From: Raillietiella orientalis
Lineage: Eukaryota
Assembly: GCA_036172245.1 (NCBI GenBank)
Contig: JAYWIR010000002.1
Span: 3,906,001-3,970,000, forward strand
Direction: 5' to 3'
DNA: 64,000 nt
In this document: in pieces, positions 1 to 25,200 of the stretch
Position numbering within the stretch: the first letter of the stretch is position 1
Layout of the letters: every line of letters starts with the position of its first letter
The notes under the pieces: model-generated
What the model saw: the letters and a program-made list of their open reading frames with translations, nothing else
Database searches by the model: none
What the model was told of the DNA's origin: nothing
Translations under genes and position numbers: made by a program

Positions 1-413
1 ATGGCAAAGAAATCACAAATGAAGAAAGGCATTCAGAAGATTTAAGTACAACAACGCTATGTAGATGTACGCAAAGCTACAAAAGTAAATGTATTTTGTG
101 TGCGTGTGTGTGTTTTTTTTTTTTTTTTTTTTTTTACAAATGTAGATGTTTTGTCGAGTCTTTTTTATCGAGTTACTTATGAAAAGATGCAAAGGGCTGT
201 TTTCCTAAATGCCATTGCGTTTTTTTTGTTGTTTTCTTCGTATTTCTGTAATTTTATTAAGGGTGTATTATGGATTGCTGTTTAAATCATCGTTTTGTAG
301 TTATTATGTATAGTTGATTTAAATTTCAATGCTTTTCAAGCATGGGCATCATATGGAATTAGTTAACATTTTTCACCTTTACTAATATCAAGAAAGATTT
401 TTTTCCTTTGTAG

Positions 414-3400
414 TTATTGAAGAGGCAAACTGGTTAACTTTGTGTGATGATATAGAAAAACCCGGTGATGGGTTTGATGCCGTGTTGTGTTTAGGAAATT
501 CATTTGCTCATTTGCCAGATGAAAATTTGGATAGTAAGAAACAAAGGTAAGCATCATGTGGTTATGTGCGAATTTGATTTTTTAAAGCATATTTTGAATT
601 TCAGACTTGCACTTCAGAATTTTAAGGACTTTGTTCGACCTGGAGGTATTTTTATGATCGATCATAGGAATTATGATGAAACATTATGTACAGGAGTTAC
701 TCCTCCTACAAGTCTATATTACAATGTAAGGCTTCACTTATTTAATTTCATTTTATTATCAGACGATACATTCTTCATAATTTAGATTTATCTTTCATAC
801 AATCAAAAGAAATAGCTCTTTCAGTCTTTCTTTGACTCTTAACATTTAATTTGCTCCCCAATTTCAACACTCACACTGAATTTGAAATACATGCTAAGAA
901 AGATGTTAAGCCTTTAGGTAATTTATATTCCTAAGAGGTTTCTGCTAATAGAAGACAAAAGAGTTTGCAAATTTCTCGGTGGAATTTGGAATTAGCATAA
1001 GATTTAAATATAATAAAATCTTCCTTTATATTGTCATTTCGATACGATTGTATATTCTTTACATATTGGAACAGATGGATTAATAAATAGTAGTTAAACA
1101 AAATGATTGTTGTACTTTGTGATGAAATACGAATCGGTGTTTCATTATTCCTGATTTTTTCCATTGTGCTTGCATAGATAAAACCCGGAAATGTAAATAA
1201 GATTCAGTTCCAAGATTTAATTTTCACTTGTGTGAATTTTAATGATACCTTTCAAAGAATAATGATTCAGGATTTAAAAGCGTACTGTTTGTGATTGAGA
1301 AGTCCAAGATTTCTGATAGGAAAAATGACACAAAGCGATAACTGTGTTCATTTTTTCAATAAACAGTGAAAATCATTTGCATATCCTTAGGGTGCTAAAG
1401 AGTTCTTGCTATTATTTTCGGTCAGGATACTTTTCTTTCTTTCTTTCTTTTTTTTGCAATTTTCCTTATTGACTGTGTGTTAATTAACTTCCGTTCAGTC
1501 CAGCAAATAAGTCCCTCTGATTTGGCTTCGGTCTTCGTCTCTTCATCCACTTGGTGACGATGAAAGTGTCCGTTTGCCCGTCGACTTTTGGCTCATTCGA
1601 ATCGAGTCCGAAAATGTCAACCGTTTGCGACGCGTGAAAGTATCTCGCTAATGAAATCTTGTAATTAAAAAAATAGGTTCCTATGTGCTCTTGTGGTGCC
1701 ACCTGAGGTAAGCTCACGGGTCATTCAGTATCTTGCGAAAGTACGAAACCACGCGTCGTGTTTTCTGAAACAGTAAGTTGCAGCGTGGATCTTTTTGCTT
1801 CCTTGGACGTACGGTGCTCCCTTTGCTGACAGGCGTTTCCCGGAACCCAGGTCGAGTTTTTCCTTCTTCGTACTTGGCATGCCTGCACGAGTTTTATTTT
1901 CGGTTTCGCGCTCTTGCCCCCCCCCCCCCCCCCCTCCCTCGGTGCATGTGGTCCTTGACGCTGCGCAAAAGAACGGGGAGTGCATTCGTTCTTTCGACGG
2001 AACCTCCATTTCCAACCTTCCATTCACTGACGCGAGTACGAGTGCTGCTGAATTACCTGAGGGCGTATAAAATATGATGGTTTTGAATCGTTTCCTGCCA
2101 GTCGGAAAAAATCTGCTTCTCCCACATGCATGGTTTTGCTGCATTTTTAACATGCCGCCCCTTTATGTTCTCGAGGTCTTCGAGCGTCTTGTAGTTTGTT
2201 GATTCCTCCGAGAATAGCGTAGATCGTTTTTGGATCGTAGCGAGACCACTGCTATTCTTTGTGTGTGTGTTAGAAATCACATCCGACATCGATTTGTAAT
2301 TAGAACCGAACCATTTCCCGAGTGCGTCTGTTGGTTTCGTGGGCAGTCAGCGATAAGTTGTTCGAGGCAGGGCTCTCTCTCAGCAGTGTTGTTTTCTTAA
2401 AGGTGCAGCTGAAAATCACGGATCGGTAAGAAACTGCTTCGTGCGCTGCCAGGGAACCGAGAGCGTGGGGGGCACGATTTTTTGTGGATGACCGTGAAAG
2501 TCTCGCCTCCCCTCTTTCATCTGAAACGACAAGGCATGGGATAGTGAATTCGTGCTCCACATTGCTGCCCTTGCTATTGGCATGCCCCGTCGACAGGTGT
2601 GTGCGTGTGCGTGTGTGGATTGCGGCAGCTCCACTTGGAAATTTCAGCTCCCCATTTGCAAGTTATCGATGATTTGGTTGTGGCATTGGTCGTTCTTGTG
2701 TCGAGCAAAATTCGTTTTTGCGTGCGAGCACGAGTAACAGCCCCGCTTCGTCTGGTGCGTGGCATTCACCTGCATCCGCAGAGGGCGGAATCCGTAAAGT
2801 GCGAAACTCGATGACCGGAGCGCCGATCTTCGGACTTTTGGACTTGGAAGTTTGTGTGGTCATGAGGAACGTGGGATCGAGAACGATGGAGCGCCCTGAT
2901 CTCGTGGGTTAACCAGTGGTTCGACAGGGCTTCATCTAATGGAGCCCATAACGTGATCGCGGGACACTGGGGAGTAGTGCTACGGAACGTCCGAGCGATG
3001 AAACCGCAGAGACCAACTTGCGTTCCTTGCGTCCCTGAAAGTGTATGGAGAGCGTGAAATTTGCCTTCGAGCCTCTCCAGAAACGCGCACGAAGGACGGA
3101 GACTCCCACGGAAGACATGGAGTAGTCGTAGCATTCGTGCGGGAAGCTCTCGATTCCGAATCGTTTTCCTGACTCATATACTAAATGTTGTGTCATTGCG
3201 AAATCCTTTTGTGTTCTAGTAATGATAAAAATAAAAAGTAAAATAAATTGAAAAAAATAAAAATAAAAAACGGGGAGGGGGGGCGTCTCTTCTGTGTGTT
3301 GCACGCATATGCTTCAAAAGTCATTCAAAGGGTGTCTGCGTCGTGCCGCGCCCTTTCCTCCAAATGAAACTGTTCAACCGAGGTAAGACCACTATTTTTA

Positions 3401-3421
3401 GAAAATTGCGGCAAAGACATT

Positions 3422-3455
<34 letters not shown>

Positions 3456-4936
3456 AGGATAGCCACTGCCTTTCGTTCTTGATAGGTGAGTACCGAGGAA
3501 TGGGGACTGGAGGTAAAAGGATTACTGTATAGTTGCTTTCCGCAAAGTGGTACATTCGCTCGTGTGAAAGAGAGTAACTTGTAGACACCGAACAGGTCAG
3601 GATCGTGTGCTGACGATGAACTCTAGATGTTACCACTGCGAACGTAGGCGGTATTGAACCGTGCTTGAGCTGCTGCTGACTGCCCGGGTTCAACCGATGT
3701 CTCGGCAGTCACTGCACTTTGGACCATTTGAGTCGGCCGCCTTCAGTGGGAGACGGACCAAAGGAGGACCTTCAGGAGTCTGCGCACTTGAACGGATTTC
3801 CGCGATGGCCACTTCGCTCGCATTCATTCGTGGAGAGAAAACTCTTGCGTTTGCTCCCACTGATTCTGAGCATGTCGAGTGCTGTCTCCGTGAACTCGGT
3901 AAACGAATGGCGGCAGAGAGTGCGAGGGAGCAAGTTGAGTGCCGGACGAAACTGCTTTCAGTGCGTTCCTGTGGAGATCACTGAACCGGCTCCGGAGATC
4001 AGGAGCTAAAATCTTTCTCCCGATCCCTTTGGAAGTTTGTGCATCGTCAGGCAAGCATCATGACTTCGAATTTTCGGGAAGCAAGGATCCCGGAGGATCC
4101 AGCTGTAGGAGAGGGACGTTGAGTTGGTGTGTGTGGCAAGGCTCCTTTTCTGTTGTCTGGGAAACAAAGGCTTGCACCATTCCTTCAGTTGGATGGCTTT
4201 AAATTGAAAGCAAGAGTTGGAGCAAGAGTCGGCTGACTCACCGTTTGTCTGCTTTCGTGCTGAGCCCAAACGATAGCCTTCCTTGTATGGGTGTGCCCCC
4301 CTCCTCCCCCCCACCCCCACCCCTCAGACTGTGCCGATAGTTGCGGCGCGGGTAGTTCCAACGGGATGTTTTGCCAGGACCGCAACTCGCGTTCGAGTAT
4401 GGCCAGCCGAAAGGGGGTGAAGCTCTTTTGAGGGCCTCGAACAACCGAGCCTACCTACTGATGGCACTTTGCGCGGCGATCGTTAGAAATGCAATTGCAG
4501 TTCCGATCCGTGGTTCTCCCTGCCTCCTCAAAAGTCTATTTCCGAATGTTGTTTCGAAGAGCAAGCACATCAAAGACATCAAGACAACCGTTATACTCAT
4601 AAACGGGCAACCCAATCTCATCGTCCTGGACTATAACATGGATATCTCCTTCCTCGGTAACAAAGATCCCAAGAGCCCAGCATGCCTGCCGAAGAACTGG
4701 CTCACAGCTTTCGATTCCAGGTAGTCTTTGCGCTCTCGATGTCTCGAGTGTTCCACTACTCGGCATGCAGTCATTTCAGGTTGTCATACTACCCTCATCG
4801 CTTGGAAGGCTTTCGTAAGCTGCTTCAGCAGACGTTTGGACCCGAAGCTAAGTATTCCGTGTTCGGCGACTTCAAGCCTTACGATGAAAGAAGCAGTCCT
4901 GGCTTCTACATCCACATTGTCCAAAAGGCGAAATAA
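414..4936 (+). CDS. GNMT: Glycine N-methyltransferase, 3' part (5' exons outside window). Exons 414-546, 605-725, 4560-4720, 4771-4936
   Basis: The spliced translation is (V)IEEANWLTLCDDIEKPGDGFDAVLCLGNSFAHLPD...RLALQNFKDFVRPGGIFMIDHRNYD...SLYYN|SKHIKDIKTTVILINGQPNLIVLDY...SHFRLSYYPHRLEGF...FGDFKPY...FYIHIVQKAK*. It carries GNMT signature motifs (EEANWL, CLGNSFAHLPD, IDHRNYD, FRLSYYPH). GT-AG introns at 547-604 (58 nt), 726-4559 (3834 nt) and 4721-4770 (50 nt) all preserve frame. Confidence 0.95.
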
Positions 4937-4937
4937 A
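4932..4937 (+). promoter_or_regulatory. AATAAA polyadenylation signal overlapping the GNMT stop codon
   Basis: In gcg aaa TAA a, the stop codon (4934-4936) lies inside AATAAA. Confidence 0.4.
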
Positions 4938-5199
4938 GTTTGCGTTCCAGTTTCTCCTCCGGGCTGCTGGACCTTTCAGATGAGTGCGACGCACCCTACC
5001 CTTGCAGCATGCGAGCATCCGGCAACCACGTGAAGTTCTTTCCATGCCCAGGAGTCCTCCCGGACCCGAACGTTGGGGGCATTGCAACTGGAAGAGCTGC
5101 AGGGTCGCGACATTTGCGCTCCTCGCCCCGAGTTGTCGGACTTGCGTTCTCTTTTGCTTTGTAACGAACGGATGCTCTCTTCGCCCGATGCACTCCCGG

Positions 5200-5860
5200 T
5201 TCGTCCTTGTCTCGGCTGACGACGAAGCGAGAGGACGCTGGCGTTTCTCCTGCTTAATCTTTTTTTCGCATCCAGTCTCTCCGGCACACGAGGAAACCCA
5301 TCATGAATATCACCTTTTTCATGAGTCGGAAGTCTGGTCGCAGGTTTTTTGCTCACGGCCTCCGCTACTTGGCACGCGTCCCGCGCAGACCAGTTGGATA
5401 GGGGGGGGAGGGGGGGCTCTCACCTCATTTTGCTGTTCGAAGGAATTCTGTCCTTCCGGATGGCTCTGCAATCAGCCTGTGGTGTTCAGGTCGAGAAGTG
5501 TCGCTGCGTTCCCTCATTGCGCGTTTTGCAGGCTCATGTTAACCGGTAGACCACTACTTTCCAGCCGGCGTCCCGACTGCAGCACTACTGACATTTCTGC
5601 AACGTCAGTCCAACAGTCTTCTAACACTGCTGGAGACGTAGGCGTGGCGGATGCTGGGTGTTCCGGTCCCAAAGGTTTTCCGCCTGCACCCTGGGACTTT
5701 CGCCACTTCCGTCGAATGACGACTATGTGCCACTCCTGCCAAGAAGAGCCATTGCTGGGTAGCAAGGGGCCTGTTTTGACCAGTCGGAAAGTTGCGTCCT
5801 CTGTTGTCTTAGGAGGATGGGCGCGTGCTTCACTTGTTCTGCAATCGTCGGACAAAATGC
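5200..5860 (-). mobile_element. Possible very degenerate LINE reverse transcriptase fragment
   Basis: Minus-strand peptides GSSWQEWHIVVIRRK (like P..W....V..I.K), LQSGRR (like Q.GFR) and PRQG occur in RT order. The similarity is weak. Confidence 0.25.
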
Positions 5861-6699
5861 GCTTCCTGTGCGTTTTTTTCCTTTAGTACAGATCATTTGA
5901 TAATGTGCCGCCAGCTGATGATCATGTCGTGATTCATCGACGAGTCTCTTCTTTCACTCCATTTCGATACGCAGGTTTCGTGTCCAAGTGCCCTCCTTGA
6001 GCTGATCCACACGTGAGGTGCTCCCGTTCGAGGACCCAGTCTCCCTTCAGGAGGCGAAACAGTTTTGCCACGCAGGTTCCCATGTGGTGCAGGACTTTGC
6101 AAGACGCATGTGCCTTTTTGCTTTCTGCTTTCTTAGCTTTTAGATGCTTATATATATATATATATATATAACGCATTTGCGCGGAGGAGGGTTCCCACAC
6201 ACCGCCCGTACAGCTGCGCCGAGGAAACCGCGAACGTGCCCGCCGACCGTGCTCCTCACACCGGAGGGAAGGCGCCAGAGAGGCTCCAGGAGCGTATCCG
6301 GAGTAGTGAGGAGGGGTGGACCTCCGGATCCACCACCACCATCGCCTCCTCGTCGCCTCCTGGCGAGTGCCATCAACGGCAACCCCTCCTCCCGTCTTCT
6401 CCGACGCTGCTCCGAGAACGGCTCGGTCTTCGAAAAGAAGGGGAGGAAGCGGCAAAAAACAAAAGAAAAGAAAAAGAAAAAAGAGAGAGAGTAAAGAATT
6501 TCATGCGCTGTCCACCCTGGGGTCTCCTCCGCGCCGCCGCGCGGGCCCCCACGTCTTGCAGGAAGAAGAGGCAGGGCAGCGAGTTCGGGCACCCAGATCC
6601 GCGAATCCAGAAATGCACCGGGTCACTCTCTTCAGACCAGGACGCAGGTCGATTTCTACTCCCAAGGCGGTCCAGTCAAATGGGGAAGGATCGAGCGTG

Positions 6700-8850
6700 G
6701 ATGAAGGCCAGGATGGAGTGGCGGCTTAGTCAGCGGGAGACAAAAAAAAAAATCCCTTTCCCTTCAGTCGGGAACGGGGAGCTCAGCCATCCGGAGAGTC
6801 GCATCACCTGGCCGCCGAAGTGGCCAGTCCAGGCTGGAGACTATCGCTTGTGGAGAGCGCGTGGGCGCCTCCACCCTGAGATCGCTCTGCGCCGCAACCA
6901 AGGACCGATCGATCGGCAGTCTCCGGTGTGTGGGATCTCTCCCTCTCCAGCTGCCCGCTTTACGAGAAAGGGGTCGGGGTGGGGGTCGGGACGCGCTCCA
7001 TCCTCCAGGGAGGGTTCCTGACAAGTCATGGGTCGGTAGCGTGGCCCCTCGCCAAAGGGGGACGACAGCCCTTGCGGAACGGACGATCACTGTAACTCTA
7101 GGCTGAGTTCGGCGGTTCCACTGCGCCCGATCAGGGAAAGGGCGGCCCGGGTGGGGCAGTGCACCGCACTTCGAGCCGCTCCTTGCACTCAAGAAAACAT
7201 GGCGGAGCTCCTCCGGCCGTCGCTTCGATTGCACACATCACCCCACAAGAGAGCGCAGGTCCGGAAGACTCCTGGCTCGGGACGAGACGCAGGAGCATCC
7301 GCTCAAGCCATCGCGTGCGGGATGCTGGCCTCGTTCGTCCGCACGAGCGTGCAGGGGAGCCTAGTCCCGGGGAGGAAGTAGGAGCGCCGGGAGGAACCAG
7401 CCAATCACCGGTAGCCTATCCGAAACTCCGGTCGGGAGTCCGGCGGATCAAAGCAGCGCCGTCTTCTATGCCCCCACCCTTTCCCCTCCCCGGGTGGATC
7501 GGCTACGTCTTTGCGAAGAAGAGGGTGGGCGGAGGCCTCTTTCCATCCAGAGTGGCGCACGAATTCCTTCGGGGACCCGAGATGCCACCCGGCACTCTGG
7601 AAAGCGCGCGATGGCGCATCCGAACGCACGGCTGCGGCGTTCGGATACTCCATCTCTCGCTTTCCGCGCGTGCCCATCGGACAGATGAGGCACGGCTGCT
7701 CTTCTGGGGAGTCGGGTATGGTTTGGAGCGGTCCTTCCCGTACTATCTCCGGGAGCCCAGTCGTCACAGGACGCTGACCCCCTGATGGAACGGGTAGCGA
7801 AGATGGTGGGAGAGGAACCCGCAGAGGTTTCAGGCGAACCGGAGTTCCCGCAGGATGCCGAGCCCGTTGCGGTCGGTGATTGCGAAACAATTGCTTCCTG
7901 CTCTCACCGGAAGCGAGACCACCCCTTTGGATGGAGCGGCGCAGCAGGAAACTCAGACGAAAAATCTGCTCCTCGAAAGTTTGGAGGGGAGAGGAGGAGA
8001 CGAAGGCAGAGGAAGAAAGCCGCCGCCGCTGCTTGCGGTAGCCGAGACATCCTGAGCCGTTCCGCATCCTCGAGGATTGTCCATGCCTGCGTCGCTTCTC
8101 CGCGCGCTCCAAGGTCATGCCCGACAGCGGGATGGAGTTTCTACTTCTCGCTTTCCCTTCGTTACTCCTGCGAACTCCCCCTTGCTCCTGAGCCTCGTCC
8201 ATTCTGTCGATCACCCACGGTTTTTTTCCTCTTCGCGGGTGATCAGCTGGTTGCCTCTGCGATGACCGGGGGCAGAACCGTCCGACGGAGACTCCGGAGA
8301 CCCACGGCCCCTTCTCGCGTCTCCCGACGAGGAAAGATGACACTTTCCTCCCGGTTTCTGTTACCCGTAGGAGAGAGCGGGAACCGATGCTGGTCCAACC
8401 TTCGGGGAACTTTTCCAGGTGGACTTTCGATGGAGGGACTGCGCCGCGTCGCCGGCAGAGGGATGCCGAGAGATCGGCAGAGAAAGCGGAGGTCCCCTCC
8501 CCTCCAAGAGATGCTTCCCTTCTTCGCCGCGAGAGCTTCGCGTGCACGTCAGGGAGGTCAGCCCAGGGCGCATCGGCGGGATCTGATGGAAGCTCCTTGG
8601 CTTGCCATCCTGATCACGTTGACCGAGCGCCAAGCATCGCCAGCCTCGGGAGCGCAGAGACTCCTGCGAATGTCCGGGTCCCCTGATTCGGTCGCTCCAC
8701 ACGAGGCGTTGTCCACGAGGGGCACCTCGTCATCGAAGCCAGCAGAGGCCCTCCGCGGAAGGCCTTTTCCTCGTTCCCCTCTTCCACGTGCCACCTCCAG
8801 GCGGCATTCCACGGCACCCTGCTCGTGTGAGATGGCGAAAGGCTGGTGAC
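6700..8850 (+). mobile_element. Degenerate LINE fossil (APE endonuclease, possibly RT N-terminus)
   Basis: Frameshifted plus-strand traces: ELSHPESRITW...GDYRLWRARG...IALRR (endonuclease N-terminal like), GWIGYVFAKK near 7495 (like RIDYVF), then MTGGRT, WRDCAA and LTERQAS (RT domain 0-2 like). Judged by eye. Confidence 0.35.
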
Positions 8851-9479
8851 GGTGAGGTTCCTGCTGGAACCGTGGTGGCGGCGGGTCTCTGTGATAAAGG
8901 TCGGAGGTGGGCAAGGCAAGCGTGAGGAAGCGGGTTCGCCGCCTTCCGGGAGAAAATTCGGTGCGAGGAGGGCAGCGCATTCCTTCGCCTCCGGGTGAAA
9001 AAATTGGTTCACGTCCTTGCCCTAGAGAGGGTTCCGGGAACAGAAGGCGCGCCGATAAGCTGGCTGGCTCTCGAGCTCGCGGTCATCATGAAAAGTGGGT
9101 AGCCACCCCGCCCACTTATCGCACGAAGGGGCTCTCTTTCGTAGGAAGGCTCCGACAGTGGCTCCCCCTTCGTGCGCAGATCTGGATGAAAGGGAGGACC
9201 CCCGGGGAGTCATTATCCCTCCCCCCTTCCCCCCCCCCCAACCGCCACTGCCGTCCATTTTCCTGAGAGCGCGCTTCCTGTCCCCGCCTTCTTTCGTGAA
9301 TCCTCCGTGAGCGCGCCAGCGCGGCTGATCGCTTGCGTGCCTCTTCGGTGCCTCTTACCTGCCGCGTTCGTGACGCCGTCGCCAGCCTCCCTGATGCACG
9401 GAGCCTGCGCTCTCCTCATTGCAGCGACTCTTCAGGTGGGCAAGAGGGGTGAGTCCTCTCCTGCACCAGCCAGGCTCTC

Positions 9480-9990
9480 CAGACCACGGCTCGGGACTGA
9501 TCTCCAACGCGTCTCCTGCTTCGCCGCTGCCGCTCTATGATGGCACCCGAGATTTCGTATCCCCTCTCGGACGCTGTCCCGGACGGTTCTGAGCGGGCAT
9601 GGCGGCGGCACAGATGTCCTCAGCTGCATTTCCAGATCGAGAGCTTGCCAGCGGCCCGGCATGCGTCCTTTGCTGTTGAAGTGCGCGAGCCACGCCGGCC
9701 ATGAGGAGCAAGCAGAAGAGACATGTGACCCCTGCATTGCTGTGTTCCAGCGGCCTGCTATTGGGAGCCTCCATCGGGACCGGAAGTACCACCAGTCGGT
9801 GGGCGTCTTAAGAAACACCTCCGTCTCTCTCCGGTGATGCCCTCGAGGGGAGCTGCTGAGGCTTGCCAAAAGGGAAAAAATGATGAGAATGAGGCAAGCG
9901 TGAGACGGGGGTAAGACGGGAGTTCGAATGATTTGGACGCAAGGAAGTAAGGAAGAGTAGGGGTTGCAGTGGGATCCCGACGGGAACACG
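9480..9990 (-). mobile_element. Possible LINE RT fragment
   Basis: ORF 9432-9989 contains MQGSHVSS (like QGS.LSP) and IRNLGC (like V.NLG/KYLG). Their spacing is shorter than canonical. Confidence 0.25.
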
Positions 9991-12251
9991 GATAATCCGG
10001 CCCCTAGGGCAAACCATGGTCTGCTGTTCGTGCTACTTCAAGCGCCGCTTCTGCAGCCTTGCTCTTTTAATCCTTTGTTGCTTTCGTGGGCCAACTCGAT
10101 CCGTTTCCGGTCTTGGTCTTTCCTCCGCACCGGGGGCACACATTCCACCCGGTCCGGTTCAACGGGAGCCATTGCAGAACTCAAATCATGCCGCAACCCA
10201 TGAAGGCTTCTAGAAGGTGGGAGGAGATGGCTCTGCTCAGATGTTCACCAAGAGAGCGGTGAGCGTGCTCACTGTTTCGTGCACTGCATCCAGAGCTCGA
10301 GAGCGCAAGAAGAATCTCCTCCCGTTTCAACCGGGAGCGTGAGCGATGGGGTCGCGAGCTGTGAGTGAAACTAGGCAGGATGGGGGGGAGGGGGGAGGAC
10401 GTTACATTTTCGGGACGTTCCGCTCTTTCTGAAGTCGACGGGTGCGGTTCAGCAAGCGATCCGGAGCTGCAGTCAAGATGGGGAAACTCCCTGAGAATGT
10501 GCGTGTTTCTCGCGTACTAGGCCTGGGAAGTGGGGAAAGTGCCAGCCGAGGGAATCCTCGCGCCTCCGTTCCATTCTGCTGCGCGCTTCCTCCATTCCCC
10601 TCATTTGCGGCTTTGGTCGTATGTCGTCCGATGGTTTCATCTCTCTCCGTCCCCCTTCCTCTGCAAACGCGGTGCCTTCTCTCAAAGGCGGATTCTGTGA
10701 AATGCCTCTCAGAGAGCGCGTGCATGGAGCCGCCCTCAGGCGGAATCGTAAGCGGTTGTTCCTCTAAAAGTGTGCGCACCATTGGGAATGTTCCTCGTCG
10801 TCAGGAGCCTTCGCTTTCTTCTTCACGATTCGTTGTCTACTAGAGAGGAAGGAATGCCGTTTGGGAACCATTCCGGAATTCTATTACGGTCGCCGGCGTT
10901 CACCTGAAGAGAAAAGCAGTACCGTGCTCCAAGGGGGCGAGTCTGCGAAGCGCATCGATCACCGATTGGCACTCTCTGCAGCACGCATGGAAAAGTCAGA
11001 GCAGAGTGAGGATCAGTTTGGGAGAATGGGAGGGCACGGGGTCGGACTCTGCTTTTAGCCTCAGGTGCCAGCCAGCTTCCCGATCAAGTTCTGGGACTTT
11101 GTGGACGCCTATTGAGAGAATCTGCCTCGGAAACGAGGAACACACGTGCTGATCCTCAACGCCGCTGCTGAGACGAGGACTGGGCAGTCGTATGACGATT
11201 GTTCGACCACCACTGCTTCGCAAACAGTCGCCATCCGCCACCTCCAAAGACCCGCGCGAACCGGAACCGGCAGTCTCCCTAGAGGGTACTGGGGCTCCGC
11301 ACGAACGTGGTCTGCAACTGCTGCTCTCCAGAAAGATCGCGTCGAATGCTCGAATCAAACTGCAAGCTCGACTCGGGGCGGTCTTCTCACGCCTAGTGGT
11401 CCGCGAAAAGCAGGCACTGGGGATCACTTCCTGAGATCAGTGACTTTACCACTTTGCACTCGCTGCTCTTCAGATCTCGGTTTGCTTTATACATGAGCCT
11501 GAAAGAATGCCTGGAGCACCCACTAGCGCAGAATTCAGCAGCGTGCGAACGAGTCAGCGTTCCTAGGATCGCTTTTTTCTTTTTCTTTTTTTGCTCCGGT
11601 AATCTGTGCTCTCTCAAGCTGGGACGGTCCGATCCATTCCTTTCTCGAAAGATTTTTGCTATCACACAGTCTCGTTGACCTAAAACGCCAGACTTGAATT
11701 TCGAACCTCCCTCTTTTAGCAACCAACGGTGACCTTCTGAATTCAGCGGCAAGCATCTGCTTTTTTTTTTTTCATTGGAGGCGGGAACACACCCAATTTC
11801 GTCCATGGATGCCCCTGTCGTTAAAGATCGCTCCCTCTTTGGTTAAATAGGGTCAACCTCACCCACGATGAGTTCCTTGAAAAACTCATTTTTCTCGTTT
11901 TATTACTGCCACTGTTTCAATTTTCAGTCGACAAAAATGCTATTTCTGGTGTCCTCACCAGGAAACAGGGGTACCTCTTACCGATGCCGCGAAGAAACCA
12001 ATTTCTGTTGCTCATACACTTATCATTTGACTACTACGTTCACCTTTCTAATCATTTGATGCTAGACGAAACGCCGGAAGGTGCACACATCAATTTCAGT
12101 GTTCAGCGGAGCGAGAGACCGACATCGCTACAGTCTGCCATCAGAAAGGAAGAAACGGAAACAGCAGACATGGAGACGAATCAATACAGTGAAAGTTAAC
12201 GTTGTCCCGTTGACCATCAGCGTGAGTTGCCTTGGAAACTCTGCAGATTTC

Positions 12252-15200
12252 TTACTCGTCTGTAGTGAAGTGAGAATTTTTCTTCCAGATCTGAGTAACT
12301 ATCTCTAAGCTGGAATGGTGAGTATCAGTTCGGGAGTCCAGCTTCAAGGAAACACTGTTTTCTTCTTGCTGGTGGCCATTTTCGGTTTGGCAGCTGAATG
12401 CTATGTTCTTGGAAGAGGACAACGAGGCGAAATCGTTGGGAGCTTCCGGTGACCTGGACTCCTTCCGTATCACGGGTGATTTCTCACGAGTGTTTTTTGG
12501 ATCGTCTTTCCGGAGGTTGGTTGTTTTTTCGATCCACTCTTTGGCTTTCAGGGAGCTTTTGCCTTTGGGATGGCTGGGCGCAACTTCACGCGTATCGGGA
12601 TGAGTGTTTAACTGATTCTGTAGCATAACCAACGCTTCGAACGCGGATTTCCAAATTTCGTTGTTGCCACTTCCGGTGCACTGCAACGGTTGCTCTGATA
12701 CAGTCGCCTGAGAAGACGACGACGTTGTTTCTGGATGCTTGTTTTGGGGCTCTTTGGCAGGGATGTCCGCTGCCTTGGCAGACGCAAGGCAGCTGCTGGA
12801 GAACTCTTCCCCAAGAGTTAGCTTGGAATTCAACGAGTCCAAAGTCTGCAGCACCACATCCAGTTTGCAGAATTCTTTAGATTTTTGACTAGAAGCTATA
12901 GGAACATCGTAATGACCGGGCTGCATGTATTCGGAGACCAGAGGAGGATATCCATGGGGTTTGGTATCTATGTAGTTTTTGCCTACGTAGTTTTCGTCAT
13001 AAAAAGAGATGAGTGCAGAATCGTTGTCTGAATAGATCTCCTTCTGAGAAACCTCTTGATAATCCTTTTCTGCACAGTGTTCCACAGAGTGCCTGCTGCT
13101 TTTTCTCTGGTACCTCTGTTTCTTTCCGGAAGAACTGTACTTGTGAATGCAGTGGACGCATTTTTCATACTCTGCAGACCCTCCGTGGACATCGCTCGTG
13201 CTGCGGTCCATCGAGCCTTCTGATCTGTTGTAAAGGTAGGACTGATAGTTGCGATGCCTGTTCCCGTATCTGGATGCGTCTTCGGGATTGGCGAAATTGC
13301 TCTTACACCTTTCGTAATTCGTATTCCTTTTCGTTCGGTACGCTTGCTTCACGTCTTTTGCGGTGTTCTTGTGCCTAAAATTGCTCGAGTAGCATTCGTG
13401 GAATGTGTCGCAGGAGTTATGGGAGGACAGAGACCGATCGTATTTGAATTGTTCTTTTAGGTAAATAAAGCAGTTCTGAGTCACTTCGGGAAAAGACTCC
13501 ATCTTGGAGTTTGCGTTCGTGCTGCTCGGAAACAGGCTCTTGTTTTGCTCGTATTCATTCTTCGTGGCATCTTTGTGGCTTAGGGGCTTGTCAGACGCAA
13601 GAAAACCGTGCTGAAGCTGACTTTCTGAACAGTTTTTACTGTTGTCTGCATTCTGAGAGAACACGCACGAGGAATGGATATTGCATTTATAATATTCGCT
13701 GTTACTTGCAGGAAGTTCTTTCACATAGTCGATCAAGATTTCCTTTCCTTTGCTCATATTCGCTTGTTCCTCAAAAAGGTTCGGGGAGACATATTTGCTG
13801 CCCACGTTGCAGCATTCGTAATCGAAATTATCGAAATGAATTTGATCATCGCACAAGAAACTGTTCAGAGGGTGGAAGCCGTTCTGGGAATGATAATTTG
13901 GTTTTGGTACGCTCTGTATCCTGGAACTCACTTTCTGATGAAATGAGAGGCACGGTTTTTCGTAGCTCATGAACTTGTTGAAACTGTTACACCTATCCTT
14001 GATTAGGCTGGTGAGCGGTTTCAGGCGTTCCGGGACGAAATTCTCTTCATAAAGAACCTCCGGAGTCGGAGGAGAATTCGGAATTGCTTGAACGTTTTCC
14101 AATTCCTTCAGCTGCTCTTTGAAAACTTGGATGCATTCCTTTAATAAGTTCCGAGAATCTTCGCTGTTCGTCGCTTCGTATGTGGCTTTCGTCTGGATGA
14201 AGATGGAAAACGTGTCGAGTAGTCGTTTCGCCAGAGAAATAATGTACTCTTTGCGCTGAGAACCACTTTCCAGCAAAGAATCTCTTCCAGAAGATTGCGT
14301 ACGAACAATTACAGACAAAAGATTTTCAATGAAGCCAGACATGTTGAAACATTTACTCTCGGCACAGCCTTCTTTGGGCACCAGAAGTGCACTGCATGGT
14401 TTGCTCCCGTCTACTTTGCTCTCTTGAACTTCGCTGATGATGCTCTCTTTCTCAATGAGGGCTTCATTCTTGGATTGATCAAATGCTGATGCGATGTTGG
14501 TGCAAATGCCGTTTCCTGTTTGGGAGGAACTCAGTACTTGCAAATTTTCTGTAGGAATGCACATTTTCGTTAGTCCTGGAGGATTATTGTTGTGGTGAGC
14601 GAGATCAGTCTCATCTGAAGATTCCTGGCTTTGGCTGTACAATTTGGTCTGCTTCGATTCTTCTTCTGTGTATCGAAGATTGTCTGGCTGCTGAGAATCA
14701 CAGAACACGCTTAGGTGAGGACAAAAGTCTGCATTCGTAAAGCTGTGTCTATTGGAATGTGCTTTCTCTTTCAGTTGAGAGTACACGTCGGACGTGCTGC
14801 TGCAGATCTTCGGGATAGTGGATGACTCGGCAGAAATGACGCAGTGATCGGCGGATAAATCCGTGGGAATGTTTTCCGATTCGTATGACGTGCATGAATT
14901 TGCAGATAATTTCAGGTTTGTATCATTCCCGCTTGAGTCGTCTCCCTTTCTCACAGAGAATATTTCATCCACAGAGATAACAGAATGATGCTGGGAAAAG
15001 TTCCCCCTTTTATTCTTCTGTCTAAAGCTCTTCTGGGAGTAGTGTTCTTTCGTCTTTTTAGGGTGATTCTTCTCATTTTGCAGAGTCCTATCCAAGGACC
15101 GAAAGACGCCTGTTCTGTGCTGACACTTTTCCCGATTATCTCCAAGATTTTGATTGCTGCCTTCACATGAGGACGCCTGCTTATGGAAAGACATGGTCAT

Positions 15201-15578
15201 TTTGCTGCGTTTCTTTCGACTAGTGAGCAGATCTGCTGCAACTGATTTGGCCTTCAAGCACAGACTATCGTTCGGAAAATTCTGAAGGTCATTAGGAATG
15301 ATATTTTTGGAAGACGAGCCAGCAGAAAGGGTTAATGACTGAGGAAAAATATTCGCAATCTTCAGAACTGCATTCTCGATAGTATCTTGACTCACAGCAA
15401 TCGTTCGAGTAATTACATCTCCAGTTTCCACATTAATGGGACCCAAGAGAGATGGACTGCAATTGCTTGAATGTACATCTCTGCTGTTGAAGAGTTCCTT
15501 TTCATGAATGAGTGGGACAGATGGTTGAAGGAACATAGAACCATATCTAAAAAGCGACTGCTGTTTTTCAAAATGCAA
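12252..15578 (-). CDS. Long Ser/Glu/Lys/Asn-rich ORF (about 1100 aa); probably a giant exon or intronless orphan gene, no recognisable domain
   Basis: The frame is stop-free for 3.3 kb and stays open to about 15689; the first ATG is at 15536. At moderate GC this length is far beyond chance. The composition is biased toward predicted disorder, with a helical block (IENLLSVIVR...LLKECIQVFKEQLKELEN). The terminal TAA lies inside a possible donor, GA|GTAAGA, at 12256/12255. Confidence 0.8.
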   Translation of the reverse strand: MHFEKQQSLFRYGSMFLQPSVPLIHEKELFNSRDVHSSNCSPSLLGPINVETGDVITRTIAVSQDTIENAVLKIANIFPQSLTLSAGSSSKNIIPNDLQNFPNDSLCLKAKSVAADLLTSRKKRSKMTMSFHKQASSCEGSNQNLGDNREKCQHRTGVFRSLDRTLQNEKNHPKKTKEHYSQKSFRQKNKRGNFSQHHSVISVDEIFSVRKGDDSSGNDTNLKLSANSCTSYESENIPTDLSADHCVISAESSTIPKICSSTSDVYSQLKEKAHSNRHSFTNADFCPHLSVFCDSQQPDNLRYTEEESKQTKLYSQSQESSDETDLAHHNNNPPGLTKMCIPTENLQVLSSSQTGNGICTNIASAFDQSKNEALIEKESIISEVQESKVDGSKPCSALLVPKEGCAESKCFNMSGFIENLLSVIVRTQSSGRDSLLESGSQRKEYIISLAKRLLDTFSIFIQTKATYEATNSEDSRNLLKECIQVFKEQLKELENVQAIPNSPPTPEVLYEENFVPERLKPLTSLIKDRCNSFNKFMSYEKPCLSFHQKVSSRIQSVPKPNYHSQNGFHPLNSFLCDDQIHFDNFDYECCNVGSKYVSPNLFEEQANMSKGKEILIDYVKELPASNSEYYKCNIHSSCVFSQNADNSKNCSESQLQHGFLASDKPLSHKDATKNEYEQNKSLFPSSTNANSKMESFPEVTQNCFIYLKEQFKYDRSLSSHNSCDTFHECYSSNFRHKNTAKDVKQAYRTKRNTNYERCKSNFANPEDASRYGNRHRNYQSYLYNRSEGSMDRSTSDVHGGSAEYEKCVHCIHKYSSSGKKQRYQRKSSRHSVEHCAEKDYQEVSQKEIYSDNDSALISFYDENYVGKNYIDTKPHGYPPLVSEYMQPGHYDVPIASSQKSKEFCKLDVVLQTLDSLNSKLTLGEEFSSSCLASAKAADIPAKEPQNKHPETTSSSSQATVSEQPLQCTGSGNNEIWKSAFEALVMLQNQLNTHPDTREVAPSHPKGKSSLKAKEWIEKTTNLRKDDPKNTREKSPVIRKESRSPEAPNDFASLSSSKNIAFSCQTENGHQQEENSVSLKLDSRTDTHHSSLEIVTQIWKKNSHFTTDE

Positions 15579-15719
15579 CTGGGAACATTCTATATCAAAG
15601 TTTTTTTTTCTTTTTTCTTTTGAATAGACTGCACAGCTTTCGACAAGGCAAGCACTAACAGTACAAAAAATCGAATCTCTAAATGCATTTTAGATTCAAA
15701 TACCATTTTTTCCATATAA

Positions 15720-17460
15720 ACCTAAAATTAAACTTGAAAACATTTCCGTATTTGTTAGCATTTCGCTCGAGTTTAATCTGCTCTGTGTTTTCTAAGACAT
15801 TGCCGTACTGCTCACTCGATATACTACAACCGATCTACAACTATTTATTCTTCTGACTTTCTCTACGACTGTTCAAATAGCCCGCATCAAAGTTCACGCT
15901 CTTAGATTAGACAGTTGGCAATGTTTCGAATGCGTTCCCCCGCCAACCCTTTTTTCTCTTGAAGAAGAAATTTACGCTGGTTGAACAGTGAGCTCCTCTC
16001 GATGTTCTAGAAGGCTTGCAATCGTGTGTTTTCCCTTTCTTGATCAATTTCATCATTTGCCCTGGAACCTTTTCTAGGAGGCTGTGCTGGCGAGTGCTGC
16101 TTCAAATTTTCCCTCCCTTGCTATAAAACACCGTTACACGTGGAAGAAACATCGAACGAAGATCACGCCAACCATTCCTGCCAGCGGGAGCGAAACCGGG
16201 ATTTCCACAGGAGCAACGCTACTGGAGTTGGATGTATGCTGGCCAGTTAGAATGTGATATCGGCTCGATGGAAATGGAAAAAGGCTAGTTTCTTGGAACA
16301 GCAGCCTGTTGAAAGGCATCATTTGCGACGATGGTCGAGTAGGCTGTTTGTAGATAGGATAATGATGGACCACGTGAGTATTACTGGTGATAGTAACAGT
16401 GGACAGTGTTGCTGGAGATCAAAAACCCCTGTCTTGGTTTTACGGTTGTGCTGTATAGATCCCTAACTGGACGCAGGTATTTCAGCATCTACTTAACCTA
16501 AAGGCAATGTTCAAGGTCAACCACGCATTCTTTAAATAGAAGGAAATAAGCGCCACATTCCCACCAGTGGGATGAACAATCTCATCGTTTGAAGAAATGT
16601 GAATCGCAGCTGTGAATACCGTAGAAAGATAAAAAAATACACTCCATAATTTGCAATTATTGGTCTCTACTTTGAGATTCTCAACATTTTTGCACGACAA
16701 CTACAAGGATGGTGTAATGGATTCGTCACACTGACATCAGTGTGTCTTTCACATATGTATGTGGATATGTGTATTTCGGGAAAGTAAAAGACAAGAATTC
16801 TCAGCAGACCTTCATCTCAATAAAATACTAAAAGAATTTTTGGAGTGCCATTTTATTTTCTAAAGTATAACCAGAGAAAGACAACCAGCACACCAAGACT
16901 CATTTGTCAGTTACTGCCCTTATCTAAAAATAATTCTCGTAAAAACGGGACACATAACATCTGACACTTGATAGTATTCATTTGTTTATGACCTTTAAGC
17001 AACCTATTAGCAAGACTAATGACCTTGAAGATGACCTTGCCTGGTGATCGTTTGGATGGTAGGGGGAGAAATGAGCTAGAATTTTGAAACTGAAACTTGG
17101 TTGCAAATCTGTTACAAGAGCAGATGAACTAAATCTTGGATATCTCAAGTTATCGATACAAATTATTTGTAAAGACAATACAATAAAAAATCCTTAATAT
17201 GGATATGAAACTCTGGGTTCCTATGATTCCTACTTTGGTACATTGCTGGGAACTCGTTACAAACAAAGTTCCTTGTCTTTCTGTACAATCTTGTGAACCA
17301 ACTTGAATGCGAATAGACCAAATGCACAGCATTGAAAATCAGGAAGCGAAAAGTTTCGGAACCATCCTCTGCCCGAAAGCAGCAGCATTCTCATCCAACG
17401 AATGCTATTTAACCTGAGGCATAGCGACATTCAGTAAGCTGATCTCTTTTGAATTCTTGA
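15720..17460 (-). mobile_element. Degenerate LINE ORF2 fragment (RT core and downstream region)
   Basis: Minus-strand traces LPDFQCCAFG (like LDF.KAFD), ITRQG, NLKVETNNCKL (like L..N..K), LKNAWLTLN (like VKNLGVTLD) and LLSPVILTW, with many stops and frameshifts. Confidence 0.35.
16691..16733. repeat. Short dispersed direct repeat, copy 1 (copy 2 at about 18263-18305)
   Basis: TGCACGACAACTACAAGGATGGTG is identical in both copies. It continues TAATGGATTC..CACACT in copy 1 and CGATGGATTC..CACACT in copy 2. Confidence 0.9.
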
Positions 17461-18199
17461 AGCAACAAACATACTTTGTTTATGATCAATCAACAGCGTT
17501 CTGTCAATTGAAAATGACACCAGAAAAGTCATATGGAACATCACTAGCGAAAGGTGTCGAAAAGTTCAAATTAAGCCATCACAGAGTGTGTAATATTTTA
17601 ACCACCCAAAAATGTTTATTATTATAAAATTCATAATTTTATTATTTGAAAAACTAGATTTTATTTTCATCGGATTGATGGATCGAGTGCAAAGGTTCTG
17701 AACCAATCAGTGTAATGGACTAAGGTGAGGAAATTAAAACAGAGCAAATACATCACGCAGTCGGGAAGGATATATAAGTGGTAAAATTTAAATTCATGCA
17801 TAGATACCTTAAAACTTGGTTTGAAGTCATCGCGCTTTCGTTTAATTAATTTCAAAGGTCCTAAACGATTTGTTCATCGCATTTGACCCCATAAGTTTTC
17901 CACGTTTCTTACGTTTACAGTTTCTCATGCCCCCGTGACTTCTCTTAAGCTTTTTATGTTTTAACCAGTAAACGAATCGAATCCAATTTGATAATTCAAT
18001 TAGAAACTCTAATCTCGATAGCTAGTAACTTCTTTTCGTTGCACAGACTTTTTTTATTGATATTTAGCACCCTTTCTTATCCCTCACGCTAAACGCTGAG
18101 GACATTTCAGATAGCCACCCTTCATATTCCTTAACAGACCCTCTGTGGCACTCTTAAGGAATGTAAGTATACAAGTATCTGTATAAGTATTTTGCTACA

Positions 18200-20460
18200 C
18201 TGTGTCTCCAACAAGCATCAACACATTTATACACGTATGTACGGCGCTGCTAACACATTATCTGCACGACAACTACAAGGATGGTGCGATGGATTCACGC
18301 ACACTAGCTTAAAAATGTATCATTCCCATCGATTCAGATGTGAAAAGTTTTCCAAATGGTTCGCATTGCCGGAGGGGGACCTCTGTGAAAACTGCCCATG
18401 AGAAGATTCCTCCACAGAAGAAGCTCGCCCGTTGCGGTAGTCTGCAAGCGTTTGAGCTGAGTGGTAGTGTCTGCAGCTCCCCCAGTTCGCTTCTCTTCTT
18501 AAAAGATGCCATTTGCAAAAAGTGAGCCAGAAACAGAGTTCTTGTTGGAGAGTGTTGTTCAGCCCATGGCTCATTTTTGGGCGGAAGGCTCGACATTTTC
18601 GGACGCGTCTGAAACGGTCGAAAAATCTTTCCTTCGAAAGTTGTTTACAGTGTTGTCTCCACTGTATGTCTCGCTTGCTCATCAGTAAAAAAAGAAAGAA
18701 AGAAGGAAAAGAAAAGAAAGAAGAATAAACACTGATACAAGGCGATAACGTTGAAATTCTTGTTCTTTCATTGGACTTTCCATTCGGTGATCCCAATTTT
18801 TGTTCTACAGTCTCGATACGAGGAGTCTTCAGAGTAGTGGGTAAAGCGGGTGAAAGGTGGGAGTATCTTCGATATTTTTGGTCACAATCTAAGATATCTT
18901 TAGCAAACGTGCCTTGGGCTTACTAAAGAATCACCTCAGAAACTACTGCCGTTGCCCTTAGATAAGGCACAACTTTGTGTAAGAGTACATGAGCAAGTAT
19001 GCGGTTATCTGCCAGACGAAACGGATGAGATTCAAAGCACTGCTCCAACTGCATCTGCACATCGTTTCTTCATGAAACAATTCTTCATTTGAAACTAGAG
19101 TACTCGTCGATTTCTTCCTCATCGCGTTTCAGTTTACCATCCTTGTCTGTTCATTCGAGTTCAAATAAAATGCGAATTAGGTGAGTAAAAACTCACATCT
19201 TTCTTGAAGAGATGGTCCGTGGCTGGGCATCACTTTTTTTCATACTTTCGTCGAATGAGTCGTCGAATACTCTTTTGCGACTTTCCTTGTCTTAGGTGTC
19301 AATGCATCCTTTCAGTTTCTCTGTTTTCTTGGTTTACCTTGATGGATTTTCTAACGAATGATTGCCAATGAGATGAGAGACTCATAGGAACACCTTCTCA
19401 TTCGATGCCAACTTGCTTTGTAGTAGTCAATGTGTTACTGGATAGTTAAATCTTTAAAATCATTGCACTGAATTTTTACTTGAGAGTGATGAATCTGCTG
19501 AGTATTGACCTTTAAATCTAAAATCTATCTAATTGTAAGGCGAACTTTTCTAATTGCTCCGAAATATTTTTTCCAAGATTTCAGAAAAGTATTTAGATAG
19601 TTGTGATGCACTCGTTCACATCTACCTACTCATAAACGTTGATCAGAATGTTGCGAATAATAGAGTTGGTTTTGGTATCGAACTCACAATGAAGTTCGTT
19701 TTATGATTTATAATCTTCATCGACCTTCATAAGCAATATTTAATTCTGCTTTCATTTCTTTCTTTCCTTTTCTGTTGAAGATCTCATTCTTACCTTACAA
19801 GCAAATGGTTCGTATTTATGCACTTCTTCTGACAGTCTTCATTTGATCTTCAGAATCGAAAGTTTCAAGGATCTGGTCAATTTTCCAAAAACAAGAAAAG
19901 AAAAATACTAGCTTGTAGATGAACGTGGGCTTCTGCAACTCTCAATTAGGTCATGTACGAATTTATTTCCGTATGAGCTCACTAGAAGCTCTATGAACTG
20001 CAGAAATCGGAATTCTCTGCAACTATGCTGCATCTGGTTCATGTATCCGTTATGTAAAGTGATGCAAGTTCTTCGAAACCATAGTTCATGAACCTGTTCC
20101 ATGATCCTGGACAAAGCAAACTAAATCTCAGCTTTTGCTTTGCACAATTTCCAAATGTCCGTCGAGTTCCATTCCAGTGGACAGAACTTCGAACTTATAC
20201 GAGGATATCAATGGCCTTCTTACAAGCATTCAAACGTTGGCTCACGAATTCCTGTTTTCATCATAGATCATCATCGTGCTCAAGTACTTTTAATTCCAAA
20301 ATGGTGTTTGTCACGCATGTTATGGACCTTTAGAATGTCATTTCCTTGAATAACGATAAAAATATTGAGTAAACGTTTTCAGCATCCATGAATTGAGGTT
20401 TGGTATCGTTTCTCACAGTTCTTGTTTTCTCCTGAGAACTTGAATCAAGCATACAATATT
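18200..20460 (-). mobile_element. Degenerate AT-rich LINE ORF2 fossil (linker plus RT)
   Basis: Colinear minus-strand motifs with roughly canonical spacing: IRRLIRRK (19260), LSKGNGSS (18960), LPTTLKTPRI (18840), QRYRLVSV (18745, like NYRPISL), NNFRRK (18640, like GFR), FLAHFLQMASF (18525, like FLD..KAF), QRSPSG (18385, like QGS.LG) and RADNVL (18265, like YADD). Confidence 0.55.
18263..18305. repeat. Short dispersed direct repeat, copy 2
   Basis: 24-nt exact match plus a near-match extension to the copy at 16691-16733. Confidence 0.9.
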
Positions 20461-20521
20461 TAAGAACAAATCAGAGTATCCATAGGGATCATTCCGGGCT
20501 CGTTGGAATAGTTTTCCACGC

Positions 20522-23822: not shown

Positions 23823-23853
23823 TTACAGGGTATTCTTTGAGAATACCCTGTAA
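23823..23853. repeat. Perfect 14-bp inverted repeat, TA-CAGGGT...ACCCTG-TA; possible collapsed Tc1/mariner-type MITE
   Basis: TTACAGGGTATTCT-TTG-AGAATACCCTGTAA. It extends to 19 bp with one mismatch. Confidence 0.6.
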
Positions 23854-24659: not shown

Positions 24660-25200
24660 AGTTTCTAGAGATACCAAGGAGATGAAGGAAAAAATGTATT
24701 CCAGGAAAACTCCGGAGAGCCGATCAGAAGACAAGAAGGAAAACATTAGTTATGCAGCACGCGAAACTCCACGAGAGAGGAGGAGCAAACTAAACATAGC
24801 CGATGCGGAATAGAGGAAAGAGGAAATAGAGGAAATTTTGCTGAGTGTGCTGGCTGGATTTAATCAAAGCTGTACTATTAGCGATTCGATGATAATACGC
24901 ACCCTCATATAAAAACAACTCGAACCACAAGAACTTACAAGGAAATAAGGAAAACAACTTTCCATTTAAGCTTGAGAAATATCATGGAAGTCTTGTTAAT
25001 GGCAATAAACTCTCTCCTCTCCTGTACCAGTATTGTGGAACCAACCATTGTGTGGCGAATGCTGTCAATGTAGCATCCTCAAAGAAATCACAGCTTTGCG
25101 AACTCTTGCGGAATTCTGTTCCAGGAACAGATAGAAGACTGGAAAGGGGCTGATCTGAAAGTGACCTGCTGCTCCACTAAAATCTCGAACAAAAGAAAAT
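24660..25200 (+). mobile_element. Possible decayed retrotransposon gag/ORF1-like remnant
   Basis: A purine-rich frame reads EMKEKM...EEIEEILLSVLAG...IIRTLI*KQLE with scattered stops, followed by the Cys cluster PLCGECCQC. Family not identifiable. Confidence 0.25.

Follow-up and report, generated by a model that had tools for sequence, protein, structure and literature searches.

The 64-kb stretch of Raillietiella orientalis DNA analysed here (contig JAYWIR010000002.1, positions 3,906,001 to 3,970,000; 64,000 nucleotides in all, hereafter the window) opens inside a gene for glycine N-methyltransferase (GNMT), the visible exons of which lie on the two sides of an abrupt change in base composition and differ in their choice of synonymous codons. 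The four exons in view and the three introns between them, all of the GT-AG type, are on the forward strand and represent approximately the last 190 residues of GNMT, the exons for some 110 N-terminal residues being located upstream of the window. In window coordinates, the features of this region are as follows (GC3, G or C at third codon positions, is given for the exons).

1-413, forward strand: 3' part of the GNMT upstream intron, AT-rich, 29.1% GC
414-546, forward strand: first visible GNMT exon, IEEANWLTL...DSKKQ; GC3 12/44
547-604, forward strand: GNMT intron, 58 nt, GT-AG, 29.3% GC
605-725, forward strand: second visible GNMT exon, LALQNF...SLYYN; GC3 7/41
726-4559, forward strand: long GNMT intron, 3,834 nt, GT-AG, containing the compositional border
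1430-1455, forward strand: pyrimidine tract read from the sequence, (TTTC)n followed by a T run, immediately 5' of the change point
1450-1600, unstranded: transition zone, GC rising from 31% to 49%, with the change point at 1490
4560-4720, forward strand: third visible GNMT exon, SKHIKDIKTT...AFDS, starting in phase 0; GC3 36/53
4721-4779, forward strand: GNMT intron, 59 nt, GT-AG, 50.8% GC
4780-4936, forward strand: last GNMT exon (fourth visible), R-LSYYPHRL...HIVQKAK-stop; GC3 31/53

Continuity and codon usage of the GNMT gene

Comparison with solved structures places the exons within GNMT. In phmmer searches against the PDB, the first visible exon aligns with residues 112-150 of solved GNMTs (E 6e-14) and the fourth with residues 240-290 (E 1.2e-9); the third, aligned with residues 199-231, is weak alone (E 0.15), and the second was matched through tblastn with GNMT homologues. 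Judged from these alignments, the exon series is collinear with the solved GNMTs. The first visible exon opens with 2 nt that finish a codon, so the preceding intron is of phase 1, and the aligned homologues read W or F followed by V-IEEANW at this point. The gene ends with a TAA stop codon (4934-4936) that is overlapped by an AATAAA hexamer at 4932-4937. No homologue was found when exons 3 and 4 were queried against longer proteins, and metagenome scans for relatives of exon 4 found none. In the protein atlas, the GNMT homologue P0053 led only to the general GNMT cluster, in which the commonest phylum is Chordata. Protein P0036 (240 aa) aligns past the exon into window positions 290-413, with 54% identity over 81 aa and across stop codons of the window; this extension is probably an open reading frame (ORF) called through the intron of a related genome, or else a low-complexity chance match.

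The junction across the long intron, 725^4560, is of phase 0, falling between codons, and rebuilds the stretch ...LYYN/SKHIKDIKT... (the slash marks the junction). The YYN/SKHIK portion is continuous in the alignment of homologues, the unbroken counterparts being YYNSKHIKGIQT in P0053, YYNSNHIKDIQT in P0055 and YYNSKHIVDIKT in P0089, and unrelated DNA joined by chance would not restore YYN/SKHI so exactly. A HMMER search over 1.84 billion representatives seeded with exon 1 returned at least 150 GNMT relatives, and the 26 homologues of at least 190 aa among 150 listed relatives were used as tblastn queries against the window (E<0.01). Only the four exons matched, with no second GNMT exon set in the 64 kb. 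The long intron itself (726-4559) yielded no repeat, no Pfam match and no GNMT-like piece when all three were looked for.

Identity to the homologues is higher in the 5' half (exons 1 and 2) than in the 3' half (exons 3 and 4) for all of them, at 52-72% against 17-51%; for P0053 the values are 62% and 43% and for P0055 72% and 43%, and both of these proteins are 'SKHI-type'. The higher 5' identity appears to reflect the conservation profile of the GNMT family itself, and no clear discordance between the halves was seen in this comparison of small numbers. Collectively, the splice sites, the intron phase and the rebuilt motif suggest that the GNMT gene is continuous across the compositional border and would give rise to a single spliced mRNA.

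The two halves of this gene differ sharply in codon usage. GC3 is 19/85 (22%) in exons 1 and 2 together, 36/53 (68%) in exon 3 and 31/53 (58%) in exon 4, so that the 5' half (19/85) is set against 67/106 in the 3' half (Fisher exact p = 1.7e-8). The original prediction, made from the sequence and a list of its ORFs, had arrived by hand at 19 of 85 (about 22%) for the 5' exons and at 36 of 53 (about 68%) for the exon at 4560-4720, and our recount returned identical figures. At four-fold degenerate sites, G or C is found in 4/28 cases in the 5' half and in 25/40 in the 3' half. Third-position counts are T41/A24/G11/C6 for the 5' exons and C44/G21/A17/T21 for the 3' exons, with codons shifting, for example, from TTT to TTC, from AAT to AAC and from TTA/TTG to CTC/CTG. 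The other two codon positions are similar in GC content (first position 0.47-0.48 in the 5' half and 0.43-0.50 in the 3' half; second position 0.33-0.38 and 0.33-0.35), and the fraction of the amino acids G, A, R and P (GARP) is 0.21 in either half. Because the first and second positions and the GARP fraction are unchanged, the GNMT contrast is purely synonymous.

The non-coding DNA changes together with the silent sites. On the AT-rich side, the GC content is 29.1% at 1-413, 29.3% at 547-604 and 28.9% at 726-1490; on the other side it is 50.3% at 1491-4559, 50.8% at 4721-4779 and 55.0% at 4937-6000. The maximum-likelihood change point is position 1490, with a log-likelihood gain of 89 over positions 1-5000 and of 170 when the whole window was segmented recursively. 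The adjacent segments, with 30.0% and 50.3-51.1% GC, respectively, differ significantly, as is characteristic of a boundary between compositional domains. In 100-bp windows, GC rises from 31% (1401-1500) to 49% (1501-1600), so that the edge is about 100 bp wide. A parallel shift of the flanking DNA had been proposed at roughly 1.5-1.8 kb, inside the 3.8-kb intron; it begins at about 1.49 kb, and GC exceeds 50% by 1.8-2.0 kb. When the metagenome scans were queried with a 40-mer spanning the border, no exact match was found.

Composition and gene content of the window

The border at 1490 is one of several in the window. Recursive segmentation of the 64 kb produced nine segments, 1.4-21.8 kb long and ranging from 30.0 to 66.5% GC:

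1-1490: 30.0% GC
1491-6180: 51.1% GC
6181-11425: 61.0% GC
11426-12870: 47.3% GC
12871-26575: 40.6% GC
26576-29545: 50.4% GC
29546-36040: 36.8% GC
36041-57830: 59.8% GC
57831-64000: 66.5% GC

A second border, at 36040 (35950-36150, unstranded; 36.8% to 59.8% GC), is as sharp as that at 1490. No gene was recognised across it, and a search for a sequence element shared by the two borders found none.

Three further genes were found in the window; they are listed here with the GC-rich block next to the border at 1490:

About 32657-33800, reverse strand: AAA-ATPase gene, Pfam AAA and AAA_lid_3, with introns of 44, 35 and 44 nt
12255-15689, reverse strand: long uninterrupted ORF of 1145 codons, rich in Ser, Asn and Lys
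About 44089-44965, forward strand: Methyltransf_11 gene (Pfam), a class I methyltransferase, interrupted by a GT-AG intron of 121 nt (44593-44713); GC3 84-87%
1491-11425, unstranded: GC-rich block, 51% and then 61% GC, containing the GNMT 3' exons and otherwise unique

Among single-stretch PDB matches, the AAA-ATPase is closest to the outer mitochondrial transmembrane helix translocase of the ATAD1/Msp1 type (8vxt and 7upr). The 1145-codon ORF produced no Pfam family and no usable protein-atlas match; its GC3 increases from 36% at the 5' end to 57% at the 3' end, toward the GC-rich block. The methyltransferase gene at about 44.1-44.97 kb is presumably METTL7-like.

For 11 coding pieces belonging to four genes, we compared GC3 with the GC content of the non-coding DNA within 1 kb. 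GC3 follows its surroundings closely (Spearman 0.97, slope 1.8, the 11 points including pieces of the same gene that are not independent of each other):

GNMT exon 1: GC3 0.28, flanking GC 0.30
GNMT exon 2: GC3 0.17, flanking GC 0.32
AAA exons (three): GC3 0.32-0.39, flanking GC 0.37-0.39
Long ORF, 5' third: GC3 0.43, flanking GC 0.42
Long ORF, 3' third: GC3 0.56, flanking GC 0.48
GNMT exon 4: GC3 0.59, flanking GC 0.54
GNMT exon 3: GC3 0.68, flanking GC 0.55
Methyltransferase exons (two): GC3 0.84-0.87, flanking GC 0.65-0.66

Dinucleotide analysis of eight segments showed a continuum of GC content (0.30, 0.37, 0.41, 0.50, 0.51, 0.60, 0.61 and 0.67) along which the dinucleotide odds ratios vary monotonically. 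In all eight, TpA is under-represented (ratio 0.33-0.70) and AA/TT over-represented (1.13-1.34), and the two AT-rich segments are near-identical in dinucleotide signature (delta* 36). For CpG, the AT-rich segments have observed-to-expected ratios (o/e) of 0.69 and 0.73 and the GC-rich segments of 0.83-1.00, with CA/TG ratios of 1.21-1.22 and 0.80-1.07, respectively; the CpG minimum of the window, 0.43-0.56, lies over the body of the AAA-ATPase gene at 32-34 kb. Furthermore, GT-AG introns occur in both kinds of domain (35, 44, 44 and 58 nt in the AT-rich, 59 and 121 nt in the GC-rich). The shared dinucleotide traits, together with these introns, point to one eukaryotic genome rather than to a host and a contaminant.

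Coding signal is sparse. The Pfam scan comprised 364 ORFs, namely 137 of at least 130 aa from the whole window, 136 of 60-129 aa from 1-1.6 and 11.4-36.1 kb, and 91 of 60-129 aa from 1.4-11.6 kb, so that in the 36-64 kb part it covered ORFs of at least 130 aa. Matches were limited to three exons of the AAA-ATPase (32.6-33.4 kb) and the ORF of the methyltransferase (44 kb); a Pfam family was thus detected in 1/137 of the longer ORFs and in 0/91 of the shorter ones at 1.4-11.6 kb. Within the GC-rich block at 1491-11425, none of the scanned ORFs (at least 130 aa, or 60-129 aa) had a Pfam family and there is no coding signal apart from the GNMT exons, and a query of the plasmid collection in distant mode with positions 1491-9400 gave no match. 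Within 36-64 kb, the one gene picked up by a scan for three-base periodicity is that of the methyltransferase, at 44-45 kb. Whole-window scans for Rfam families and tRNAs found none, and no direct or inverted repeats of at least 40 nt were detected; self-blastn of the window returned four matches of 41-42 nt, which represent one pair listed twice and two short self-complementary stretches.

Several other features of the window can be recorded. The DNA at 36041-64000 (about 28 kb) is unique and apparently non-coding, with 60-67% GC, a CpG o/e of 0.84-0.90 and many G/C runs and purine/pyrimidine tracts, and such an extent of GC-rich non-coding DNA is unusual beside genes with introns of 35-121 nt. 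G/C homopolymer runs or clusters of G runs occur in the GC-rich blocks at 1920-1936, 3275-3287, 4296-4323, 5401-5417 and 36139-36149, and A or T runs of 22-28 nt at 113-135, 3425-3452 and 23984-24005. A perfect (CAC)16.7 microsatellite at 28695-28744 would encode 18 consecutive histidines within a putative ORF at 28227-28880 on the forward strand.

Explanations for the two codon usages

A contrast that is confined to silent sites, is paralleled by the flanking DNA and is repeated in every other gene found in the window is most simply explained by a regional force rather than by translational selection. Translational selection was rejected because a single mRNA carries both usages and the flanks shift alongside the exons. 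The original prediction had reasoned in the same way, that one mRNA could not face two translational regimes and that a regional force must therefore be involved, and this argument is borne out by the silent-only nature of the contrast, its agreement with the flanks and its recurrence in the other three genes.

The explanation that we consider probable is that the border at 1490 is a natural, fine-scale border between compositional domains, at which a regional neutral bias has acted in place and the synonymous sites have equilibrated on either side. Under such a scenario, the genome of this eukaryote with animal-type genes would be a fine mosaic of compositional domains of 1.4-22 kb and 30-67% GC, and one domain edge, at about 1490, would fall within the unusually long GNMT intron. 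A neutral substitution bias specific to each domain would push the non-coding DNA and the synonymous positions to an equilibrium of their own, leaving the 5' exons with T/A-ending codons and the 3' exons with C/G-ending ones and the protein unaffected. The edge would have been stable for long enough to allow the synonymous sites to equilibrate.

As to the nature of the bias, we tentatively favour, at somewhat less than an even chance, recombination-linked GC-biased gene conversion (gBGC) in the GC-rich domains. These domains are rich in CpG and in purine/pyrimidine tracts, and the pattern resembles the one described for plant genes and for the borders of isochores. A bias of regional mutation or repair that is linked to chromatin or replication is a possible, less probable source of the same effect. 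The joint shift of silent coding sites and non-coding DNA, with the protein composition unchanged, is what a gBGC domain should display; the same shift is also predicted by regional mutation bias and does not discriminate between the two, and a regional mutation or repair bias fits the data obtained as well as gBGC does. Among the three candidate mechanisms put forward in the original prediction, methylation-driven loss of C to T proves to be too small (about 1.4 GC points), and gBGC and a repair bias of chromatin domains are not separated by the present data.

Several observations weigh against the natural-border explanation. The change point adjoins the pyrimidine microsatellite at 1430-1455, a type of sequence prone to assembly misjoins, and continuity of the gene across 1490 is judged from the sequence itself; a misjoin at about 1.45-1.5 kb is conceivable. 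At 3,834 nt, the intron exceeds the six other introns of the window (35-121 nt) 30- to 110-fold in length, which makes this an atypical locus. Gene-conversion tracts would be expected to blur an edge over hundreds of bases, and the edge here is about 100 bp wide. The single-locus status of GNMT was judged within the 64-kb window, the relationship between GC3 and flanking GC likewise comes from 64 kb and partly from non-independent pieces of the same genes, and any preference for gBGC, a mutation bias or a repair bias over the others is itself inferred.

The pyrimidine tract and the disproportionate intron are also compatible with an assembly that joined two unrelated pieces, from different organisms or distant loci, near 1430-1455 and thereby created a chimeric 'gene'. 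We regard this as unlikely. A random join would have to supply complementary halves of GNMT in the right order, orientation and phase, with the exact YYN/SKHI sequence at the junction. Moreover, the window contains further transitions, including the equally sharp one at 36040, and GC3 rises gradually inside the intact 1145-codon ORF. A chimera should separate into two classes of oligonucleotide signature, and what we find instead is a continuum of composition and dinucleotide usage; there is also no plasmid match. Contamination by bacterial DNA can be rejected because the GC-rich DNA lacks bacterial-type coding density, as is evident from the Pfam counts and from the periodicity, which within 36-64 kb is confined to 44-45 kb. 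The frame-preserving splice had previously been taken to argue against a chimera of host and contaminant, and that view is strengthened by the phase-0 junction, the rebuilt motif, the continuum of composition and the non-bacterial character of the GC-rich DNA.

The two halves of the gene might alternatively have had separate histories, the 3' exons having arrived through a rearrangement, through the fusion of two GNMT paralogues or through ectopic conversion by a paralogue situated in GC-rich DNA. The abnormal length of the intron and an edge sharper than conversion tracts predict would both fit such an event, and homologues rank slightly differently by identity to the one half and to the other, although the numbers are small. 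We nevertheless consider it improbable. A second GNMT exon set is absent from the intron and from the rest of the 64 kb according to tblastn, P0053 and P0055, both 'SKHI-type', are similar to the 5' half and to the 3' half alike, and the composition of either half agrees with that of the DNA now flanking it. This is also true of the other three genes, so that a bias acting in place would be needed anyway. The original prediction had allowed that the 5' and 3' exons might belong to two different GNMT paralogues; a check across the 64 kb gave no sign of a second copy. The natural-border explanation does not account for an edge as sharp as about 100 bp or for an intron of 3,834 nt, and a history of rearrangement or paralogue fusion therefore stays in contention. 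The same two features leave a misjoin beside the pyrimidine tract in contention as well, at odds below those of the rearrangement or fusion history.

Methylation-driven decay would require methylation of the AT-rich domain, with loss of C through deamination at CpG, and an unmethylated GC-rich domain. The lower CpG o/e and higher CA/TG ratios of the AT-rich segments are in the expected direction, as is the CpG minimum over the AAA-ATPase gene body. The magnitude is not: with C and G at about 0.15 each, raising o/e from 0.69 to 1.0 would add about 0.007 CpG per site, that is, about 1.4 GC points against a gap of 20-37 points, and the codon shift is general, extending beyond CpG contexts. CpG decay was therefore rejected as the main cause, the effect being too small, and the explanation as a whole appears very improbable.

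Finally, it is scarcely credible that the AT-rich blocks derive from repeat-induced point mutation (RIP) or from transposons, as in some fungi, or that a GC-rich mobile element was inserted in the intron. Abrupt edges and an alternation of AT-rich with GC-rich blocks are the features that recall such systems; RIP was rejected because its footprint is the reverse of what the AT-rich segments show, namely a depletion of TpA (o/e 0.67-0.70) and an enrichment of CA/TG (1.21-1.22), and transposon insertion because the window is free of repeats of at least 40 nt and none of the 364 scanned ORFs contains a transposase or reverse-transcriptase domain. In addition, the GC-rich block carries GNMT's own 3' exons and the AT-rich block its 5' exons.

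Relation to known systems and significance

Classical isochores extend over hundreds of kilobases and are features of CpG-depleted vertebrate genomes. The segments of the window, 1.4-21.8 kb long, are too short to be isochores in the sense of Bernardi and differ further in their range of 30-67% GC, their CpG o/e of 0.7-1.0 and the length of most introns (35-121 nt). In fungi, AT-rich isochores generated by RIP alternate sharply with GC-equilibrated DNA and consist of mutated repeats with an excess of TpA. Blocks of that type combine TpA excess with CpA/TpG depletion and repeats; the DNA of the window is unique and TpA-depleted, and, unlike the fungal blocks, its AT-rich blocks house conserved animal-type genes.

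Abrupt GC borders at or near human genes offer a closer parallel. According to a review (PMC10295253), the MHC class II/III transition coincides with a switch in replication timing (Tenzen 1997) and that at NF1 with a switch in recombination rate (Eisenbarth 2000); these transitions are like the GNMT border in that an abrupt change in GC passes through or beside genes. More generally, Elhaik and Graur (IsoPlotter; PMC4393066) portray the genomes of animals as a patchwork of discrete regions of varied length, with GC contents significantly unlike those of their neighbours, and the segmentation of the window shows the same picture. The IsoPlotter model is descriptive and without a mechanism; the amplitude, the sharpness and the cutting of a gene by a border are particular to the GNMT locus.

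In plants, codon and nucleotide composition changes in steps at introns within a gene, and gBGC has been proposed for the outer regions of genes, according to Ressayre et al. (2015; PMC4684703). The GC-rich end of plant genes is the 5' one, and their pattern is a genome-wide gradient tied to gene structure. GNMT differs in that its GC-rich end is 3', its flanks change too and the step lies within an intron instead of at the intron's edges. A 2026 survey (PMC13746493) gives peaks at about 30% and 52% GC for the larvacean Oikopleura longicauda and notes that three further tunicates have secondary peaks, with the cause unsettled. Introns as short as those of 35-59 nt in the window would suit such a lineage; the likeness to the bimodal composition of tunicates is a resemblance only, and nothing ties the window to tunicates. 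Keyword searches of the open-access literature found no description of a single animal gene split by a compositional border, which is no proof that there is none.

The phenomenon is of a known kind, and GNMT is an unusually clear, sharp and large instance of it. A bolder proposition, which we regard as doubtful although possible, is that the window exemplifies an undescribed, extreme architecture for an animal-type genome, with 35-121-nt introns, low CpG depletion and knife-edged, kilobase-scale domains of unique non-coding DNA at 30-67% GC. The edges would then be fixed borders of chromatin that is recombination-active (gBGC) or differently repaired, lasting long enough for the synonymous sites to settle at a different equilibrium on either side, and the GNMT intron would have grown about 70-fold around one of them.

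Contamination or horizontal-transfer screens based on GC content or codon usage, as well as gene finders, would split or misclassify genes in such DNA. If the border is real, it would provide an exact place at which to compare crossover rate, AT-to-GC fixation bias, methylation and replication timing. One transcript, with one expression level and one protein product, would carry two opposite synonymous usages across an edge of about 100 bp, and GNMT would thus separate regional neutral forces from translational selection without the confounding that comparisons across genes entail.

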